32,000 bases of DNA from assembly GCA_023898425.1 (NCBI GenBank), contig CP060222.1, positions 1,000,801 through 1,032,800 on the forward strand, written 5' to 3'. The notes under the pieces were generated by a model. It worked only from the letters and a program-made list of their open reading frames with translations, ran no database searches and had not been told where the DNA came from. This document shows positions 7,025 through 13,940 of the stretch, piece after piece (within the stretch, counting starts at the first letter, position 1; every line of letters starts with the position of its first letter). The position numbers and the translations under genes are program-made. This DNA comes from Candidatus Saccharimonadota bacterium (lineage in GTDB: Bacteria; Patescibacteriota; Patescibacteriia; 2-12-FULL-60-25).

Positions 7025-7116
7025 GGAGAGGTGGCAGAGTGGTCGAATGCAACGGACTTGAAATCCGTCGTACGGCTTTAACCGTACCGAGGGTTCGAAT
7101 CCCTCCTTCTCCGCCA
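7025..7116 (+). tRNA. tRNA-Ser (anticodon UGA), CCA encoded
   Basis: Hand-folded. Acceptor stem GGAGAGG/CTTCTCC with one G-U pair. Anticodon arm ACGGA-CTTGAAA-TCCGT gives anticodon TGA. Long variable arm gtacgg-ctttaa-ccgtac. T-arm GAGGG-TTCGAAT-CCCTC, discriminator G, then CCA. Confidence 0.95.
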
Positions 7117-7249
7117 GCAAAAAAACACTCGATTAACGAGTGTTTTTTTGATTTAGCCACCTTTGGTTTTGACTAGTCACGAGTTATAAATAGTGAATTC
7201 GTGTATGATGAAAAAAGATACTTACTAAGGTATAGAGGAAAAACAAAAA
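7111..7249 (+). repeat. Direct repeat, left copy (attL-like)
   Basis: Starts at CCGCCA, the last 6 nt of the tRNA. It runs through the terminator hairpin and ~100 nt beyond, to 'gaggaaaaacaaaaa'. It matches 13393-13531 except for one A-run length difference, one substitution and one 1-nt indel. Confidence 0.9.
7119..7149 (+). terminator. tRNA terminator hairpin (part of the left direct repeat)
   Basis: A-run, cactcg-attaa-cgagtg, T7 run. An almost identical copy lies at 13401-13430. Confidence 0.75.
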
Positions 7250-7270
7250 TCCCGAATCCTTTCGGGATTT
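7241..7270 (-). terminator. Terminator for the recombinase gene (minus strand)
   Basis: atcccgaa-tcct-ttcgggat hairpin. Read on the minus strand it is followed by tttttgttttt. Confidence 0.6.
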
Positions 7271-7316
7271 TCTTGTTATTAACATTTTTCGGCTTGGTTG
7301 GCTTCTTTTATGAAGT

Positions 7317-8592
7317 TTATGGCAAGTTCGAACCGATTATTGCTCTTCCGCCCAAAAGACGAGATTTTTTCTTCCAAATCCTTTTGGCGAGAATAAGCTT
7401 TTTGCTTTTGGTCGCATATTCTGCTTGCGACAAACTGCCTTCCAAATGTAAATCAAGCAAGCGATCAAGTTTTGCCTCAATCTCTACAAGCTCATCTCGC
7501 AATTTTTGGGCGAAAGAGCTTTCCGCTTGGGCAGTTTTCATTTTTTCACTTTCAAAATAATTGATTGACGCATTAGCCCAAGCGGAAGACAAAGAAACTT
7601 TTTGATTTCCTCTTTTATTTGAGAAGTGATGATTTCTTCACGAACATATTTTTTGGTACAAGGATTTTTCCGTTTGGTGCAACGCAAATAGTTATGACCT
7701 TTTTGCGTTTCGGTGGTGATAAAACAACCACATTCGCCACAACGGAAAAATCCTCTATACACAAAAGGTTTTCAATTTCGGCGTTTTCGGTTTGGATTTT
7801 TTCATCATCACTTCTTGGCATAAATCAAAAGTTTCTTTGTGATAATCGGTTCGTGCTTTCCGTCATACATTTCGCCATTGTATTCAATCACGCCATAATA
7901 AATCGGGTTTTTGAGCATGTACTGATAATTTGAGACGGAAAGCATTTTGCCTTTCTTGTTTCAAGTCTAAGAGAATTGATAATCTTTCGGATTTGAGCGA
8001 GCGGGTATTCGCCAGTGGCATACATTTCAAAAGCCCGCTTGATATATTTTGCTTTTTCTTTATCAACCGCAATACAGCGGGCGTTTTTATCGTTTATATA
8101 GCCCAATGGTGCCCAAGCGAGGCCAAATGCCATTTCGCAATTTCTGGCGAATACCCCTCTTTATGTTTTCCGAAAGATTATCCACATAGTATTTTGATTG
8201 CCCAAAAGCGATGGACAACATAAATTTTCCTTGCGGTGTCGGATCAAACCAAAAGTCGGGAATTTTAGCGCGGATATTTTACCAGTATCAACAAGATAAA
8301 TTATTCGTCCGCCGTCTATGGAATTGCGAGCAAGGCGGTCGGGGTGCCACGCTAAAATTCCCTCGGCTTCATTTTCCTCTATGCGCGAGATCATTTCGTT
8401 AAAAATCTCTCTGCCCGGCTCTTTGGCGGTCTTACTTTCCACAAATTCACGGACGATATTCAAGCCCTCTTTTCTGGCGTATTTCGAAATTCAAAAGTTG
8501 CGCCTCAATACTGCGGAATTTGACGCTCTGGTTCGTCCGTGGATTTTCTTGTATATAGGAAAAACTTTTTGGTTTAAATTTATGTTGTCCAT
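7317..8592 (-). pseudogene. Large serine recombinase, multiply frameshifted
   Basis: The protein is recoverable only by hopping between minus-strand frames. N-terminal resolvase domain: 'YTRKSTDEPERQI', 'SIEAQLL', 'ILAWHPDRLARNSIDGGRIIYL'. Recombinase domain: 'WAPLGYINDKN...'. Zinc-ribbon: 'CGECGCFITTETQKGHNYLRCTKRKNPC'. C-terminal coiled coil: 'LDRLLDLHLEGSLSQAEY'. I count at least 8 frame breaks. Confidence 0.8.
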
Positions 8593-8803
8593 ATTGTTTT
8601 GAAATTAGCTTTTGGGCAATCAAAGAAAAATGCGTTCAACCTTTCGCTGAAAGCGTGGAAAAATTAGTTCTGAAAACTTCGTTTTCTCTGTTGTCGCACA
8701 GGAACTTCCACATTGCCGACCGCACTTTGTTTTTGGATTTCAAAAATGCCTTCAAAATGCGGAAAAAACCCCATGCCGAGGCGCTTCCGATTCCGATTTC
8801 AAG

Positions 8804-9012
8804 TTTTGGCGGTGTGTATTGGACGAAGTTCGAATGTATTTCGGACAAAATCCGCAGGATTTTGACGAATGACCTTTGCGCCTCGGCGCGCTCGACAAGC
8901 TCGCGCGGGGCAAAACCCAAAAATTTCCTATCATTTTTATTTGCGGCTCCCCCACACACCCCCGCCGAAAATGGATTGGTAAGGAAATTTTTGGTTTTGC
9001 TGCCGCCGCTTC
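8804..9012 (+). repeat. Long inverted repeat, left copy (IR-L)
   Basis: Its reverse complement aligns with 13201-13398 over ~200 nt, with a handful of substitutions and small indels. The outer end reads TGGCGGTG (= CACCGCCA on the other strand). Confidence 0.9.
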
Positions 9013-9053
9013 ATAAAATCATTGTTTTTGCACACTTGTATTATAACTTAACA

Positions 9054-9083
9054 TTGAGTCAAAACACAAGAGAATGATATAAT
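9054..9083 (+). promoter_or_regulatory. Promoter candidate for the controller/R-M operon
   Basis: TTGAGT, 18-nt spacer, then extended -10 TGaTATAAT, ending 27 nt before the C-gene ATG. Confidence 0.45.
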
Positions 9084-9110
9084 AACCGTGTTGATAAGTT
9101 TTCATACAAT

Positions 9111-9317
9111 ATGGCGAAATCCACAGCACAAAAATTTGGCGAGAACATGAAGAAAATACGGCTCGAGAAAGGTATGTCGCAAGGCGATATTTGCCGTGAG
9201 TTAGGGTTAGATCGGGCGTATATTAGTAATGTTGAGAATGGTAAGCAAAATCTAACAATTAGCACGATGGAAAAGGTCGCCAAAGTGCTTGGTGTGAGCG
9301 TAGATCAACTTTTTTAA
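9111..9317 (+). CDS. XRE-family HTH protein, likely R-M controller (C) protein
   Basis: Intact 68-aa ORF. 'IRLEKGMSQGDICRELGLDRAYISNVENGKQNLTISTMEKVAKVLGV' is a classic XRE HTH. It sits 10 nt upstream of the methyltransferase, which is the size and position of C proteins. Confidence 0.7.
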   Translation: MAKSTAQKFGENMKKIRLEKGMSQGDICRELGLDRAYISNVENGKQNLTISTMEKVAKVLGVSVDQLF

Positions 9318-9326
9318 AATAATTTT

Positions 9327-10318
9327 ATGGCAAAGAATACTCAAAGCAAATTTATGATCGTATCGCTTTTTGCCGGATGTGGCGGTCTGGACCTTGGCTT
9401 TGTTGGAGGTTTTGAATCAAACGGAAAAAAATATCAAAACATCCATTTGTAATTGATTGGGCCAACGACATAGACGAACCAGCGTGTAAAACTTTTAAAA
9501 ATTATTTCAAACACGATATTGTTTGCGGAAGCATCGTTGATATTTTGAACAATAAGCATGATTCCATGTTTGATGCGCCGCTACCCAAAAAAGCTGATAT
9601 TGTTCTCGGCGGTTTTCCATGCCAAGAGTTTAGTCATGCGGGAAAACGAAGAGGTTTCAATAGTGAAAAAGGACTTCTGTATCGCAGCATGGCCGAGGTC
9701 ATTCGCAGAACGAAACCAGTATTATTCGTGGCTGAAAATGTAAAAGGTCTTCTTACGATAGATAACGGCACAGCAATCGACATTATCAAAGATGATTTTG
9801 CGGGGCTAGGATATCACGTAAATCATAAATTGCTTCTTGCGGCGGACTATGGCGTCCCTCAAATGCGCGAACGAGTAATTATTATCGGGACTCGCAAGAA
9901 TGTGCTGCCTAGATTTGAGGATAGTGACTATCCAAAACCAACCCATAAGGGCAAGCAGCATGTTTCAGTCAAAGAAGCATTTGGCGATTTGGAAAATATA
10001 AAAGAAGGTGATTTTCCGAATCATCACTGGTCAAAAGCAAGGAAAAACAAAGGACAAGGAAATGGAGTAATTGACCCTAAAAACCAGGACCCACAATGCG
10101 AACCGAACACCATGGCAATATCGAATACCATTGGAATGGCAAACGACGACTTTCAGCTCGAGAGGCCGCAAGAATCCAATCTTTCCAGATGATATGGTAT
10201 TTTGCCATCTACATCGCAAGCATACAAACAAATTGGCAATGCCGTTCCTCCTGTTTTGGCGTGGCACATTGCGAAATCAATTCGATCATTTCTCGATAAG
10301 AACTTGAAACAAGTATGA
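9327..10318 (+). pseudogene. dcm: DNA (cytosine-5) methyltransferase, frameshifted
   Basis: Motif I 'FAGCGGLDLGF', motif IV 'GGFPCQEFS', 'ENV', 'RERVIIIG' and motif X 'QIGNAVPP' are all present but spread over three frames. The first break is at the A7 run 9425-9431. Confidence 0.85.
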
Positions 10319-11300
10319 TCTACGCCAAAAAGAAAAATCCGAGTGAAGAAATTTTTTGAAAATTCTTGAAGTTTCAAAGAATAAACTTGTTTCTAAGTTG
10401 AGGACTGAAAAACCGCTTCCAAATTCAAGTGATTTTGAAGTTTTGGTTTGTGAAGTAATGATAGAGGTGGCAAAAGGCACCGAGTTTGAAGGGACTATAC
10501 GGCAAACTGGAATCGCGGCATTCCCCGACATTGTGGCAAACGGCTATTTTGGTGTGGAAGTTAAAATGACAATAAAGGACCACTGGCATTCAACGGGCAA
10601 TAGTGTTTTTAGAATCACTCATGAAGCAGATGTTCAGAGAATTTACATTATGTTTGGGAAAATGGGAGGCGAACCAGACGTGAAATATCGGCTATATCAG
10701 GAATGTTTACCAGAAGTTAGCGTAACTCACTCTCCTCGCTATCGCATAGACATGAATTTGCCGGAAGGTGAATCCATTTTTGATAAGATCGGCGTTTCCT
10801 ATGATGAGTTAAGAACGAGTGAAGATACTATTAAACAAATAAAATCATACTATCGAGGCCAACTAAAAGAAGGCGAAGGTCTGTGGTGGATTGATGAGGA
10901 ATCGAAGCACCATCACCAGTGATTAAGCAGTTTCGAACACTGGATCCCACTGACAAAGAAAAGTTTAAGGTTGATTGTATGATTTTCTTTCCAGAATTAT
11001 TTAAGAATCGGGCAAACTACGATCGAGCCGCCACATATCTTGTTACTGAATTCGGGGCAGTGTCAGCAAGCCTGAGAGATGAATTTAGCGCGGGAGGACG
11101 ACGGGAAGTCTTGATAGCACGTGAGGAGGAGAAACGTTTCGCAAGTGCTTTCCCAGCTACGCGAAAGTTACGCCCCAGGAATAGCTAGCCGAATCAATGA
11201 GATAGACGAAGATTTATTGAAATTCTATTGGCAAGTTCCTTCCATTGAGGCAAATAGAATCGAGCAATGGAAAGAACTTGTGGATAGGGACGCATGCTAG
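10315..11300 (+). pseudogene. Type II restriction endonuclease candidate (PD-(D/E)xK-like), frameshifted
   Basis: The ATG at 10315 overlaps the methyltransferase stop (ATGA). The frame breaks at the T6 run 10352-10357. The core contains 'FPDIV...GVEVKMT' (D...ExK). Further frame breaks occur near 10920 and 11180. The end coordinate is approximate. Confidence 0.55.
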
Positions 11301-11344
11301 TGGTCTTGGTGCCGAATCTCCCTCAGAAGTTTTTCAATCTGGCT

Positions 11345-11790
11345 ATGAAGAAGCGAACTCGCAATAAACTAAGCCGTGATTTTTCAAAGGAAAGAGATTT
11401 AGACAAACTAACTATCCGAGAAAGATCACGACGAATGTCGCTCATACGCTCAAGATCAACAAAATTTGAGCAAGATTTTATTGCCACTCTCAAAAAAACA
11501 AATTCGCAAAACTTTTTACTACTAATGACAAGGGTGTTTTAGGTAAGCCCGATATTGCTTTTAAGAAGCACAAAGTTTGCGTTTTTTCTCGATAGTAACT
11601 TCTGGCATGGCTGGCAATATCCACGTTGGAAGCATTTACTCAAAAATGATTTCTGGCGTGAAAAAATTGAGCGTAACAGAAAACGAGACAAAAGGTGACA
11701 CGAAAACTTTATGCTGAAGGTTGGACCGTGTTGCGTTTTTGGGAACATCAGCTTAAGAAAGATCAAACTGTTTGCGTGCAAAAAGAATAG
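11345..11790 (+). pseudogene. vsr: Very-short-patch repair endonuclease, frameshifted
   Basis: 'RSRRMSLIRSRSTKFE', 'GKPDIAFKKHKVCVF', 'LDSNFWHGW', 'FWREKIERNRKRD' and 'GWTVLRFWEH' lie in three frames. The breaks are at T6 (11582-11587) and A4 (11690-11693). Confidence 0.8.
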
Positions 11791-11839
11791 TGGACACGCT
11801 TAAATAACGGCAAGGCTTGCCCTATAATAAAGCAATATC

Positions 11840-12487
11840 ATGAAACTTACCGAGCTTAAGAAAATTGAATTACCCAGAGAGAAAATGGAGAAGTACGGTG
11901 CAAAGCGCCTCAAAACTTTTGAGTTGCTAGCGATTGTGCTTGGCTCGGGAATCAAAGGATGTAATGTACTTGAACTTGCGCGAAAAAATAGAAAAACTTA
12001 TAGCTCTAAAATCGGTAAATAACGTCACGATTGATGATTTACGAAAAATTCGTGGACTTGGAAAAACAAAGGCAATTCAAATACTTTCCGTTATTTCCCT
12101 TGTGGATCGCCTTGGGAGCGAGCGTAGTGCTGAATTGTTATCAGGAAAAGATATATGGAATTTATGTGCGGACTTTCGTTCATCGAAAAAGAACACATGG
12201 TGGCGTTTTACCTCGACACTCAACAAAAATTGATCGAAAGGCGTGTTATCTCAGTAGGAACCCTTGACGCTTCACTTTTACACCCACGAGAAGTCTTTGA
12301 GCCTGCTTTGCAATTAGCAGCGGCAGGGGTTATTCTAGCGCATAATCACCCTTCGGGAAATCTCGAGCCTTCAGATGAGGATATCGCAGTCACAAAAAGA
12401 ATAGCTGACGCCGGAGATCTGCTTGGGATTAATCTTGTTGATCATATCATTGTTTCGGATAAAGAATTTCGAGTCATGAATCTGTAA
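11840..12487 (+). pseudogene. radC: RadC-like JAMM-domain protein, frameshifted
   Basis: N-terminal HhH region 'LLAIVLGSGIKG..VLELAR' and 'LRKIRGLGKTKAIQI'. C-terminal 'LLHPREVF...AHNHPSGNLEPSDEDI' JAMM motif. The three ORF fragments lie in different frames. Confidence 0.8.
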
Positions 12488-12667
12488 GGAATTGGCGAAA
12501 CAGGGTTGAAAAAAATAATAAAATAATTTAGAATACCAATGAAAACGAGGCGTTAAGCCCGTCCCGTGTTCTTGCAAAAGCCAAAATGACTATCTTCATA
12601 TCGCGTCTGGCGAGAAAGGAGGTAGTCGAACCTTTCTCGATATTATTAACTTAATTCGAGATGTTCT

Positions 12668-12886
12668 ATGGCAAATTCAAATTGCAAGAACGATGCGCCT
12701 GGCATGAAAGGCTGCCGTACTCGAAACCAAAATGGATTGTTGCGCGACAAGCGTGATGACACCCATATTGGTACAATCGAGAAACAATATGGCATTGACC
12801 TTGGTGTCAGGTCTGATATGCAACTCGGGACTTATCTTGAGAAGCATAACATCGAATCTCTGAACGATCTTATCACGGGTCGCTAA
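12668..12886 (+). CDS. Small hypothetical protein (72 aa)
   Basis: Intact ORF, basic at the N-terminus, containing 'DTHIGTIEKQYGIDLGVRSDMQLGTYLEKHNIESLNDL'. A perfect hairpin terminator follows. Family not recognised. Confidence 0.5.
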   Translation: MANSNCKNDAPGMKGCRTRNQNGLLRDKRDDTHIGTIEKQYGIDLGVRSDMQLGTYLEKHNIESLNDLITGR

Positions 12887-12896
12887 GGGAAGCGGG

Positions 12897-12930
12897 GACG
12901 AGGCTAACGCCTCGTCTTCATTTTCATTTT
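12897..12930 (+). terminator. Rho-independent terminator
   Basis: gacgaggc-taac-gcctcgtc followed by ttcattttcatttt. Confidence 0.7.
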
Positions 12931-13200
12931 ACCTCAATTTGAATTTTCTTGCTTATTTCTCTGTGCATAAAAACGAAGCCACAGAGAGCGAACACGAAGC
13001 AAGCACCGAGCAGGCATCGCGAACGAATGTGAGCGGCCAATGCGAGGTGCCTGCAAAGTGTGAGAGGACTACCGAACTACCACCAAACGCGGAGACGAGA
13101 GCGCCTCGGGCCGACGCAAGCGACGGAGAAAAGGCGGGCGTAAAACCGGCAAAAGTGCTAAAATACACTTATTAGCCTTTTTGAGAGAGTGAAGCGGCGG

Positions 13201-13398
13201 CAGCAAAACCAAAAATTTCTTACCAATCCATTTTCGGCGGGGGTGTGGGGAGCCGCAAATAAAAAATGATAGGAAATTTTTGGGTTTTGCCTGCCGCGCG
13301 AAAGCTTGTCAGAGCGGCCGAGGCGAAAAAGGTCATTCGTCAAAATCCTGCGGATTTTGTCCGAAATACATTCGAACTTCGTCCAATACACACCGCCA
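13201..13398 (-). repeat. Long inverted repeat, right copy (IR-R)
   Basis: Reverse-complement match to 8804-9012. The outer end CACCGCCA merges directly into the right direct repeat. Confidence 0.9.
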
Positions 13399-13531
13399 GC
13401 AAAAAACACTCGATTAACGAGTGTTTTTTTGATTTATCCTACCTTTGGTTTTGACTAGTCACGAGTTATAAATAGTGAATTCGTGTATGATGAAAAAAGA
13501 TACTTACTAAGGTATAGAGGAAAAACAAAAA
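13393..13531 (+). repeat. Direct repeat, right copy (attR-like)
   Basis: Near-identical to 7111-7249, including the CCGCCA core, the terminator hairpin and the tspO leader. Confidence 0.9.
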
Positions 13532-13533
13532 AG

Positions 13534-13940
13534 ATGAACACATATAATTGGTACTCGCAACTCGTAAGACCCAGTTGGGCACCACCGTCTTGGGTGTTTG
13601 GACCTGTGTGGACGGTGCTGTATGCGATAATTAGTGTTTCTTTTGGTACAGTTTTTTATAAGGTATTCACTGATAAGATTGCATGGACGGTGGCTTTGCC
13701 ATTTGCCTTAAATCTCGCTTTTAACGCGGCTTTTTACGCCTCTTCAGTTTGGTTTAAAAAACAATCTATTAGCGGCGATTGATATTGTGCTCGTTCTGTT
13801 TACATTGGTTTGGGCTTTTTTATGCCGTATGGACGGTATTACCTGAGCTTCGTTGGGTTGTTTATGTAAATATTCCTTATTTGCTCTGGGTATTATTTGC
13901 GACCGTTTTGCAGTTGACAATCACCTATTTAAATCGATAA
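13534..13940 (+). pseudogene. tspO: TspO/MBR (tryptophan-rich sensory protein) family, frameshifted
   Basis: 'WYSQLVRPSWAPPSWVFGPVWTVLYAII', then 'TPLQFGLKNNLLAAIDIVLVLFTLVWAF', then 'PELRWVVYVNIPYLLWVLFATVLQLTITYLNR', each in a different frame. The breaks are at T5 (13731-13735) and T6 (13816-13821). Confidence 0.8.

Follow-up and report, generated by a model that had tools for sequence, protein, structure and literature searches.

The window analysed here is a stretch of 32,000 nucleotides from a Candidatus Saccharimonadota bacterium (GenBank assembly GCA_023898425.1, contig CP060222.1, positions 1,000,801 to 1,032,800 of the forward strand; coordinates below are those of the window). It contains a decayed restriction-modification (R-M) cargo bracketed by long inverted repeats, the remains of a gene for a large serine recombinase (LSR) just outside one of the repeats, and a tRNA-Ser gene beyond the recombinase. 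We call the repeat U and consider it likely that U is the element-side attachment-site arm of a small LSR-driven island that enters the 3' ends of tRNA-Ser genes, and that the complete island holds a second, mirrored attP upstream of its recombinase gene. The features that matter most to this proposal are the following, with the conserved arm P' introduced further below.

7025-7116, plus strand: tRNA-Ser(tga) (ARAGORN, Rfam), whose 3' end (T-loop TTCGAA ... CCGCCA) would be the host-side (B) arm
7111-7249: direct-repeat copy 1, made up of the tRNA 3' end and the native spacer that follows it (B')
7250-8592, minus strand: LSR pseudogene, outside the left inverted repeat (three-frame translation, Pfam)
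8593-8806, minus strand: P' arm and recombinase leader, the proposed right arm of an intact inverted attP (attP2)
8807-9013, minus strand: U-L (IR-L), the proposed element-side (P) arm of attP2, its inner part a long hairpin
13190-13398, plus strand: U-R (IR-R), the proposed element-side arm of attR
13393-13531: direct-repeat copy 2, the proposed B' arm (host flank) in attR, reaching to the tspO start

Both repeats reported in the preliminary description of this DNA are real. The inverted pair, given there as ~205 bp (8807-9013 as the reverse complement against 13190-13398), is 93.9% identical overall and was equalled in 0/100 shuffled sequences; there is no third copy of U in the window. Between the two copies the outer 71 nt (8807-8877 and 13328-13398) and the inner 30 nt (8984-9013 and 13190-13219) are 100% identical, and all differences, substitutions and indels of 1-4 nt, are confined to the middle. 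The direct repeat of 139 bp (7111-7249 against 13393-13531) starts with CCGCCA, the last 6 nt of the tRNA gene, and ends just 5' of the tspO ATG. Both inverted repeats end in ...CAATACACACCGCCA, and U, read from its inner end outward, finishes in ...CACACCGCCA. Three CCGCCA cores had been noted at three structural junctions. The ends of U do coincide with the crossover point proposed below, but 7111-7116 is just the end of the tRNA with its native flank and forms no recombinant junction, and the hexamer is not significant alone (16 in the window against 11.8 expected). CCGCCA draws its meaning in this setting solely from comparative data.

Two other identities were tried for U and rejected. 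As a protein gene (open reading frames (ORFs) 8655-9077 and 13158-13409) it gives no family matches, and the indels between the copies are not multiples of three. As a tRNA-like 3' half its end does not fold into a T arm and acceptor stem, and ARAGORN was negative. An Rfam search of the whole window and of the U region returned only the tRNA above threshold, with the other matches at chance level.

The comparative data come from loci and contigs of relatives in genome and metagenome collections, to which we refer by L-numbers (L003, L040 etc.). U recurs as an element terminus: its outermost 25-mer has exact matches in 60 stretches of a species-representative genome collection, almost all of them metagenome-assembled genomes (MAGs) of the Candidate Phyla Radiation (CPR; Saccharibacteria, Paceibacterota, Peribacteria, Uhrbacteria and others). 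Many of these matches lie at contig ends, as would be expected of a repeat that breaks assemblies. Beyond CCGCCA the flanks fall into two classes. Those of the first class share a conserved sequence, P' (AAATTGGAAATCGGAAT...), which leads after ~100-140 nt into an intact LSR gene; those of the second are unrelated A/T-rich sequences, often with terminator hairpins. Past the far end of the LSR gene lies a tRNA-Ser gene whose 3' end is likewise continued by P'; tRNA end and recombinase-proximal U are followed by one and the same sequence. In intact relatives copies of P', 114-134 bp long, thus bracket the recombinase gene; they agree at 114/114 positions in L040 and are 100% identical over 133-134 nt in L072 and L137.

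The intact layout reads tRNA-Ser joined to P', the LSR gene (reversed), P' (reversed) joined to U (reversed), cargo, and finally U joined to the host flank. Feature maps give this order and orientation for 16-17 genome loci and for ~55 metagenome loci, ~70 in all. The metagenome loci (n=80) were added by a profile search with intact LSRs; in ~55 of the 80 the LSR 3' end abuts a convergent tRNA-Ser gene, which may carry any of four anticodons. The LSR subfamily to which the window belongs (L137, L141, L132 and the second LSR of L072) has the same design, L072 for example having a U repeat of 197 nt at 99% and a P' repeat of 133 nt at 100%. At the level of clusters at 90% identity, the LSR family comprises at least 7,700.

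This regularity bears on the idea that the second repeat copy is an accident of this one genome, whether an assembly duplication or a one-off scar. The whole island is decayed, its left border is clearly rearranged and its attP2 is chimeric (see below), all of which would suit an accident; however, the two-copy inverted layout occurs in more than 20 independent assemblies, some of them contigs of 140-390 kb, and these contradict the possibility, mentioned in the preliminary description, that the second copy is an assembly duplication. The arrangement of U joined to P', recombinase and tRNA-Ser is also present in a record labelled as a complete chromosome (L058), in which the locus ends before any second U. 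We regard an accident as extremely improbable.

Element contigs also occur in MAGs labelled Gammaproteobacteria, Bacteroidetes, Actinomycetota and Woesearchaeota (L005, L009, L016, L021, L029, L036, L051, L055, L056, L061, L004, L011, L027, L033, L040); these labels may be binning or labelling errors or may reflect a host range beyond the CPR. A 28-mer of U had no match in viral contigs, nor did U with P' in annotated phage and plasmid collections. No published description of the element family was found in a literature search that covered journals readable without subscription, and the family, very common in CPR, is apparently undescribed.

We read the joined sequences as the products of site-specific integration: U with P' would be attP, the tRNA end with P' attL, and U-R with the host flank attR, while U-L with P' would be a second, unrecombined attP, inverted and directly upstream of the LSR gene. 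In the window the putative attR lies at 13398/13399 in its normal form, and it is the only bounding site left there; the tRNA-P' junction is carried by relatives in ~70 loci. The common core of attP and attB is CCGCCA, to the left of which the tRNA differs from U and to the right of which P' differs from the host flanks. A dyad in attP (TCCAAT-13 nt-ATTGGA) is centred on the CCG of CACCGCCA, and the comparison places the crossover in the CCGC of that sequence, which agrees with the tRNA end; the exact dinucleotide exchanged is one that we infer. The distal U of L008, L038, L051 and L061 ends in ...CACCGC followed by AA, AG or AC, so that the exchange has to fall at GC or to its left; these four loci are insertions into tRNA genes without an encoded CCA.

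The host side of the site is consistent with this placement. From TTCGAA to CC there are 22 nt in U and 17 nt in the T-loop region of tRNA-Ser. In serine integrases the outer motif recognised by the zinc ribbon is 5 bp nearer the centre in attB than in attP (PMC3783163), and the spacing of TTCGAA fits this offset; TTCGAA may be the motif that is actually bound. The 51 distinct host-side arms have nothing in common beyond CA and A/T richness, so the target is apparently set by the tRNA half, which alone seems to define it.

Reading the LSR frame through the crossover places attP inside the LSR gene. The LSR frame has no stop before the crossover in 17/17 complete genes, and the distance from the start Met to the Trp at the crossover is 499 aa in 15/17 loci, the last 38 of these residues (EPRGAWKNLL...SDSDFQF) being coded by the reverse complement of P'. 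In the chromosomal form the frame continues into tRNA antisense (WRRGRDSNPR...) and its end point is variable. Where the gene runs into U instead (L073, L024) the protein ends in ...FQFWRCVLDEVRMYFGQNPQDFDD followed by a stop; the gene there reads WRCVLDEVRMYFGQNPQDFDD and then stops, at the TCA found on the inner border of U's invariant part. On the opposite strand the outermost 66 nt thus hold the last 21 LSR codons and a stop, and with this tail the enzyme is ~520 aa long. The peptide is conserved at the protein level across 119 U copies (WRC[VLF]L[DNY][EK][VI]R.[YF]F..NP.D), with nucleotide changes that include synonymous ones and with a stop after 17-24 codons. Both copies in the window keep it: the plus strand of 8807-8872 reads WRCVLDEVRMYFGQNPQDFDE and a stop, a spare copy of the recombinase 3' end, and the minus strand of 13333-13398 codes for the same 21-codon tail and stop.

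Integration would accordingly swap the tail of the protein. Both classes of tail are found among database proteins, the U type in ~17 of the best 120 matches, a sample biased toward the U-type tail. That the outer 71 bases are identical and that the repeat looks too long for an att site, as the preliminary description remarked, is accounted for in its outer part by the 66 coding nucleotides; the rest of U is rich in hairpins. The tail may matter for the activity or direction of the enzyme. An intact LSR (L073) has the domains Resolvase (6-151), Recombinase (174-256) and Zn_ribbon_recom (271-323). We also considered an ATG within P' as the start of an N-terminal extension of the LSR and rejected it, since L003-type and L040-type loci have it in different frames.

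In distant relatives the neighbour of the LSR gene is sometimes tRNA-Asp or tRNA-Gln. The loci L141 (1617-1693), L113 (2482-2555) and L134 (2015-2089) abut either a tRNA-Asp(gtc), whose 3' end is also CCCGCCA, or a tRNA-Gln. A few proteins (P0018, P0049, P0066, P0071 and P0094) have a third class of tail (WRATRVKYP...), which would imply one further target.

With the junctions and the coding tail in hand, two other views of U can be weighed. One, which might be taken from the reading in the preliminary description of an R-M cassette with inverted termini nested in a tRNA-targeting island, would make the 205-bp repeats the ends of a non-autonomous DNA transposon, similar to a miniature inverted-repeat transposable element, that happens to lie next to an unrelated recombinase island. 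The layout given there is correct, the long terminal inverted repeats bracket the cargo only, and there are U-flanked cassettes that stand in tandem or lack a neighbouring recombinase (L045, L077). However, there is no target-site duplication, the window flanks being ...CAAGTTT and GCAAAAA... and those of the relatives P' and host spacer, and no transposase was present in any sampled cargo. Moreover, P' and the LSR start always continue one of the outer ends, the other always joins the flank downstream of a tRNA exactly at CCGCCA, and the outer 66 nt code for the tail of the recombinase. An independent transposon is therefore very unlikely.

The other view is that U is mainly a structured regulatory element, either a bidirectional terminator or insulator or an operator for autorepression of the LSR gene. 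U is predicted to fold into a long hairpin (z = -3.4) and a conserved 7-bp hairpin, and its central G+C stem has compensatory variants between subtypes. In the proposed circular form (see below) U follows the LSR stop, so that the rest of U beyond the coding part sits where a terminator is expected, a role it may have; on this view U would be duplicated because each border of the cargo needs insulating. Against this, U has no match in Rfam, and in L040 and L012 its inner part is replaced, leaving only ~85 nt common to the copies, so that inner U is dispensable at the distal end. As the main function of U we consider regulation unlikely, and it may hold besides the attachment role that we favour.

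The ~86-bp core of the long hairpin (13204-13290 and 8915-8998) is inverted in a second subtype of U (L003, L007, L039) relative to that of the window, as seen from reverse-orientation blastn matches (...GGGGGGTGTGGGGGGAGCC... against ...GGCTCCCCCCACACCCCCC...). The difference is apparently due to a short inversion between hairpin arms of ~19 bp.

The repeat unit of intact elements is U together with P', ~330 bp. If U is indeed an attachment-site arm, the excised element would be a circle in which two inverted ~330-bp copies of this unit divide a segment with the LSR gene from a segment with the cargo. Integration would split one copy, and the other would stay whole, inverted and directly upstream of the LSR gene. 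In the circle the LSR gene would run into U and end 21 codons later, and in the chromosome it would run into tRNA antisense. The mirrored copy would thereby serve as a spare attP and a spare LSR 3' end, and a flip of the recombinase segment could restore the complete enzyme, so that the element might switch from a quiescent to an active form. The preliminary description had considered an inverted duplicate of an attP-like site, left as a scar, and this comes closest of its readings, although the mirrored copy is conserved family-wide and is no scar.

Within an element the two U copies are 100% identical in 11/21 loci and at least 98.5% identical in 14/21, while copies from different loci are on average ~70% identical. 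The copies are therefore homogenised; recombination or gene conversion would keep the two U-P' units identical, and the conserved U arms could act as homology arms for the exchange of cargo.

Isomers of the kind expected from such a circle are found among the contigs. The cargo is flipped in L018 and L044 against ~17 canonical loci, and L024 has the matching junction (canonical to flipped ~17:2-3). The LSR segment is flipped in L073 and L131, with the tRNA joined to P' and the LSR gene running forward, the ratio of orientations among loci being ~70:2-3. In L073 (317-2466) and L131 (9749-10954) the tRNA-Ser gene accordingly lies directly upstream of the recombinase gene and in the same direction, and in L105 (33-1940) the LSR gene lies between two inverted tRNA-Ser genes. 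The upstream attP may thus be able to recombine with tRNA ends, because the arrangements in L073, L131 and L105 match what this would produce; it follows that chromosome segments between tRNA-Ser genes could be invertible.

Three other loci have unusual arrangements. Two U-flanked cassettes stand in tandem in L077 (2286-9901), ~170 nt apart; the spacer starts with P' and looks like a collapsed recombinase module, which suggests accretion or cointegrates. L040 carries the U-P' junction of another subfamily, and the arrays in L077 and L040 together suggest that the junction of tRNA and P' stays a usable target. L112, a metagenome contig of 9.8 kb, has perfect terminal inverted repeats of 2,199 nt (1-2199 and 7635-9833), each comprising the whole recombinase gene and the P' repeats. 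Either the assembler traced the repeat graph of a free circle here, or the inverted repeat has really expanded.

The flipped cargoes also bear on the proposal, made in the preliminary description, that the R-M cassette is a recombinase-driven invertible segment, which would vary in phase like the segments controlled by Gin, Cin or Hin. Both cargo orientations do exist across genomes (L018, L044 and the L024 junction), the LSR gene lies just outside one repeat with exchange at the outer repeat ends, as in the P1 C segment, and the repeats are 99-100% identical within elements. The skew is heavy, though, with ~17 canonical loci and only 2-3 flipped. The cargo has its own promoter and regulator, and flipping it would have no obvious effect on expression. 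Furthermore, with ~520 aa and its Recombinase and zinc-ribbon domains the enzyme belongs to the large serine integrases and not to the small invertases, the two sites differ in their right arms (P' at one, an arbitrary host flank at the other, as in a hybrid attR), and the recombinase of the window is dead. Phase variation of this kind seems to us unlikely.

Several points weigh against the attachment-site account with its mirrored attP. Circle formation, excision and inversion are deduced from assemblies, and the junction contigs L024 and L073 were assembled from short reads, which may thread a 330-bp repeat wrongly. To our knowledge, characterised LSRs do not recombine attP with attP or attP with attL. 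They also need a directionality factor for excision, and none was identified here. Two equivalent attP copies would predict both orientations of the LSR segment, and the ~70:2-3 ratio requires an extra assumption, such as selection or self-inactivation. Att function alone would already be expected to conserve the outermost 25-30 nt, which leaves only the next ~40 nt as a specific argument for coding. Finally, the route to the 139-bp duplication in the window, discussed below, was rebuilt from one sequence.

A more speculative extension, which we hold to be doubtful, is that the element carries a self-contained directionality switch and needs no separate factor. Integration would replace the conserved 21-residue tail by residues read from tRNA antisense, which would quiet or re-programme the enzyme, and a flip of the LSR segment against the tRNA-P' junction would rebuild the full-length protein for excision. 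Since the host-side arm is not recognised through its sequence, the junction of tRNA and P' would remain a substrate. The mirrored arms would also make the cargo bay an orientation-free landing pad that exchanges defence and resistance cassettes across the CPR.

The copy in the window is a fossil, a dead element that was trapped and then decayed. Its LSR gene has at least six frameshifts and is 83-87% identical in amino acids to the intact enzymes of L137, L141, L132 and the second LSR of L072; fragments of it still match Pfam Resolvase, Recombinase and Zn_ribbon_recom. At its 3' end the gene breaks off after ...QENPERIRDF, without its last ~48 codons, the second copy of P' and the attL crossover. 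Homology to every relative begins at 7246, and the place that the P' arm of attL has in intact relatives is occupied by direct-repeat copy 1, with a terminator hairpin at 7118-7148 in its B' part. The missing end is thus replaced by a second copy of the native 133-bp spacer between tRNA and tspO, joined at a T-run microhomology. The preliminary description had the repeats exclude the recombinase; this is true of U in the integrated form, but P', the continuation of the repeat unit, brackets the recombinase in intact relatives, and in the window the second P' copy has been deleted.

The 139-bp repeat was considered as a product of the recombinase and rejected: its left border cannot be recombinase-made since homology stops within the LSR coding region, 48 codons short of the crossover. 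The border is probably an illegitimate join, anchored by homology and made without the LSR; a tandem duplication followed by excision of one copy would yield the same border. [quoted passage not shown] The internal attP of the window is chimeric, in that U and the first 24 nt of P' (8783-8806) are of the canonical family type and the rest of P' (8593-8782) and the LSR gene are of the other subfamily (L137, L072), which points to exchange between element lineages near the crossover. Neither an empty site nor a sister strain was found by exact look-ups of the NUDIX neighbour and the C protein or by a search of metagenomes for a 26-mer from the host-spacer hairpin. L023 was examined as a syntenic tspO locus and discarded, the flank after its U being unrelated to that of the window.

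Between the repeats, and just beyond them, lie the following features.

9111-9317, plus strand: intact gene for a helix-turn-helix (HTH) 'C'-type regulator, 68 aa, with a promoter-like site at 9054-9083
9338-12487, plus strand: decayed cargo, with dcm fragments, a putative endonuclease gene, a vsr-like gene and a frameshifted radC
12668-12919 (region), plus strand: ORF of 72 aa without family matches, followed by a terminator-like hairpin (12894-12919)
12971-13189, plus strand: conserved G+C-rich, apparently non-coding module adjoining U-R
13535-13940, plus strand: tspO, frameshifted, the host gene downstream of the insertion

As the preliminary description stated, the cargo genes all lie on the plus strand. 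The putative restriction endonuclease has no family match. The vsr-like gene is split over two frames; stitched together it gives a weak match (E 1.3e-4, below the Pfam cut-off), and the unstitched ORF gives none. The host genes that flank the island are long and intact with the exception of tspO, which is split by a frameshift; the other host genes of the window also look intact. Frameshifts are dense in the island (7250-13392: recombinase, dcm, vsr-like gene and radC) and, judged by ORF lengths only, apparently rare in the host flanks. If the assembly was made from error-prone long reads, this contrast would need another cause, for example low or mixed coverage of the island.

The cargo bay that the U copies enclose spans 1.3-6.8 kb in relatives, and near-identical backbones differ in its content. 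It may contain an EcoRI-type methylase, a RadC-Dcm fusion with an HpaII endonuclease, a type III methylase with its Res subunit, a type ISP enzyme, GmrSD-HNH with a UvrD-like helicase, AAA ATPases, a copper P-type ATPase operon or, on sequence judgement alone, LexA-like proteins. The RadC-Dcm fusion stands next to the HpaII-type endonuclease in L026 (3895-5556) and L035 (3523-5187; Pfam); in these intact cargoes radC and dcm are joined, whereas in the window they are separate. Sequence similarity also points to a LexA-like/methyltransferase fusion in L045 (5730-7109) and to stand-alone LexA-like repressors in L025 (1569-2195) and L039 (3009-3632). The sampled cargoes contained neither a transposase nor phage genes, and the serine recombinase is the sole linked mobility gene.

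Besides the LSR gene and the repeats, the backbone has two further pieces. The first, a small HTH regulator gene beside the LSR-proximal U (9111-9317 in the window), is present in most relatives and is the only conserved accessory gene. The second is the G+C-rich non-coding module of ~220 nt, which is found in at least 20 loci, always adjoining one U and normally the distal one (12971-13189 in the window; L043 7497-7708; L038 5674-5896; L062 612-823; L018 4819-5031; and others). Its 3' end has TGnTAAAAT, similar to a -10 element, and then GGAGGA just before U. We rejected this module as a gene, as its indels are not multiples of three and no frame is conserved; covariation within it is weak, and Rfam has no matching family.

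Set among known systems, the family appears to be a serine-integrase island at a tRNA gene, with one attP located inside the integrase gene and another in mirrored orientation. Like other LSR elements (A118/LI, Bxb1, phiC31 and tRNA islands) it has an enzyme with Resolvase, Recombinase and zinc-ribbon domains, distantly similar to the A118 integrase, a short core shared by attP and attB with an imperfect dyad, hybrid junctions in the intact relatives, and the 5-bp offset of the outer motif between attP and attB arms (PMC3783163). Unlike them, it has attP within the LSR gene, a second complete and inverted attP upstream of that gene, a host-side right arm without conserved sequence and no evident directionality factor, and it is tiny, with an LSR, a small regulator and a cargo of 1.3-6.8 kb.

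For an integrase gene that spans its own attP, the nearest precedent is the myxophage Mx8, in which attP lies in the 3' part of intP and integration gives the gene a new 3' end, intX, and an altered protein (PMC6070905). Mx8, however, is a 49-kb phage with a tyrosine recombinase, and no mirrored attP or 3' end has been described for it, whereas the U family has a serine recombinase and no phage genes in its cargo.

For the mirrored layout two systems can be compared. The yeast 2-micron plasmid is a circle with two inverted repeats that contain the FLP target and exists as two isomers. As in the U family, identical inverted repeats with the recombinase's own site split it into two segments, one of which holds the recombinase gene, and isomers of this sort are found among the U-family contigs. 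FLP is a tyrosine recombinase acting on identical sites, though, and the plasmid is a replicon that uses inversion to amplify its copy number, while the U family has no replication gene and lives integrated. In the P1 C segment long (0.6 kb) inverted repeats have crossover sites at their outer ends, and in P1 C and Mu G alike the gene of the serine recombinase (Cin or Gin) lies just outside the segment. These small invertases act on identical 26-bp sites with an enhancer and switch tail-fibre genes, in contrast to a large integrase, one hybrid attR site and a nearly fixed orientation in the U family.

R-M units with long inverted repeats, and R-M genes with an integrase at a tRNA, were described by Furuta, Abe & Kobayashi (2010; PMC2853133), who also reported inserts flanked by direct target duplications of more than 30 bp, mostly in naturally competent bacteria. 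The 139-bp tRNA-tspO repeat of the window would fit the latter pattern, which in that work is recognised by comparing the insert with an empty site. Their inverted-repeat units were read as transposon-like, with 8-bp duplications and no recombinase, unlike the U family, where the repeats would be the attachment arms of an element with a serine recombinase and the duplication would have a true attR as one of its borders.

The copy in the window, being dead, has little biological weight of its own. If our account is correct, however, the family would be one of the most widespread mobile elements of the CPR/Patescibacteria, given at least 7,700 LSR clusters and a 25-mer found exactly across classes, and the breaks of MAG contigs at U would be explained. 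It would represent a serine integrase whose own integration rewrites its gene, and a natural two-attP design resembling engineered cassette exchange. As a compact integrase that needs only the end of a tRNA-Ser gene, the enzyme could serve genetic tools in the CPR, which are hard to manipulate. The element would move R-M, other defence and metal-resistance genes between tiny genomes.

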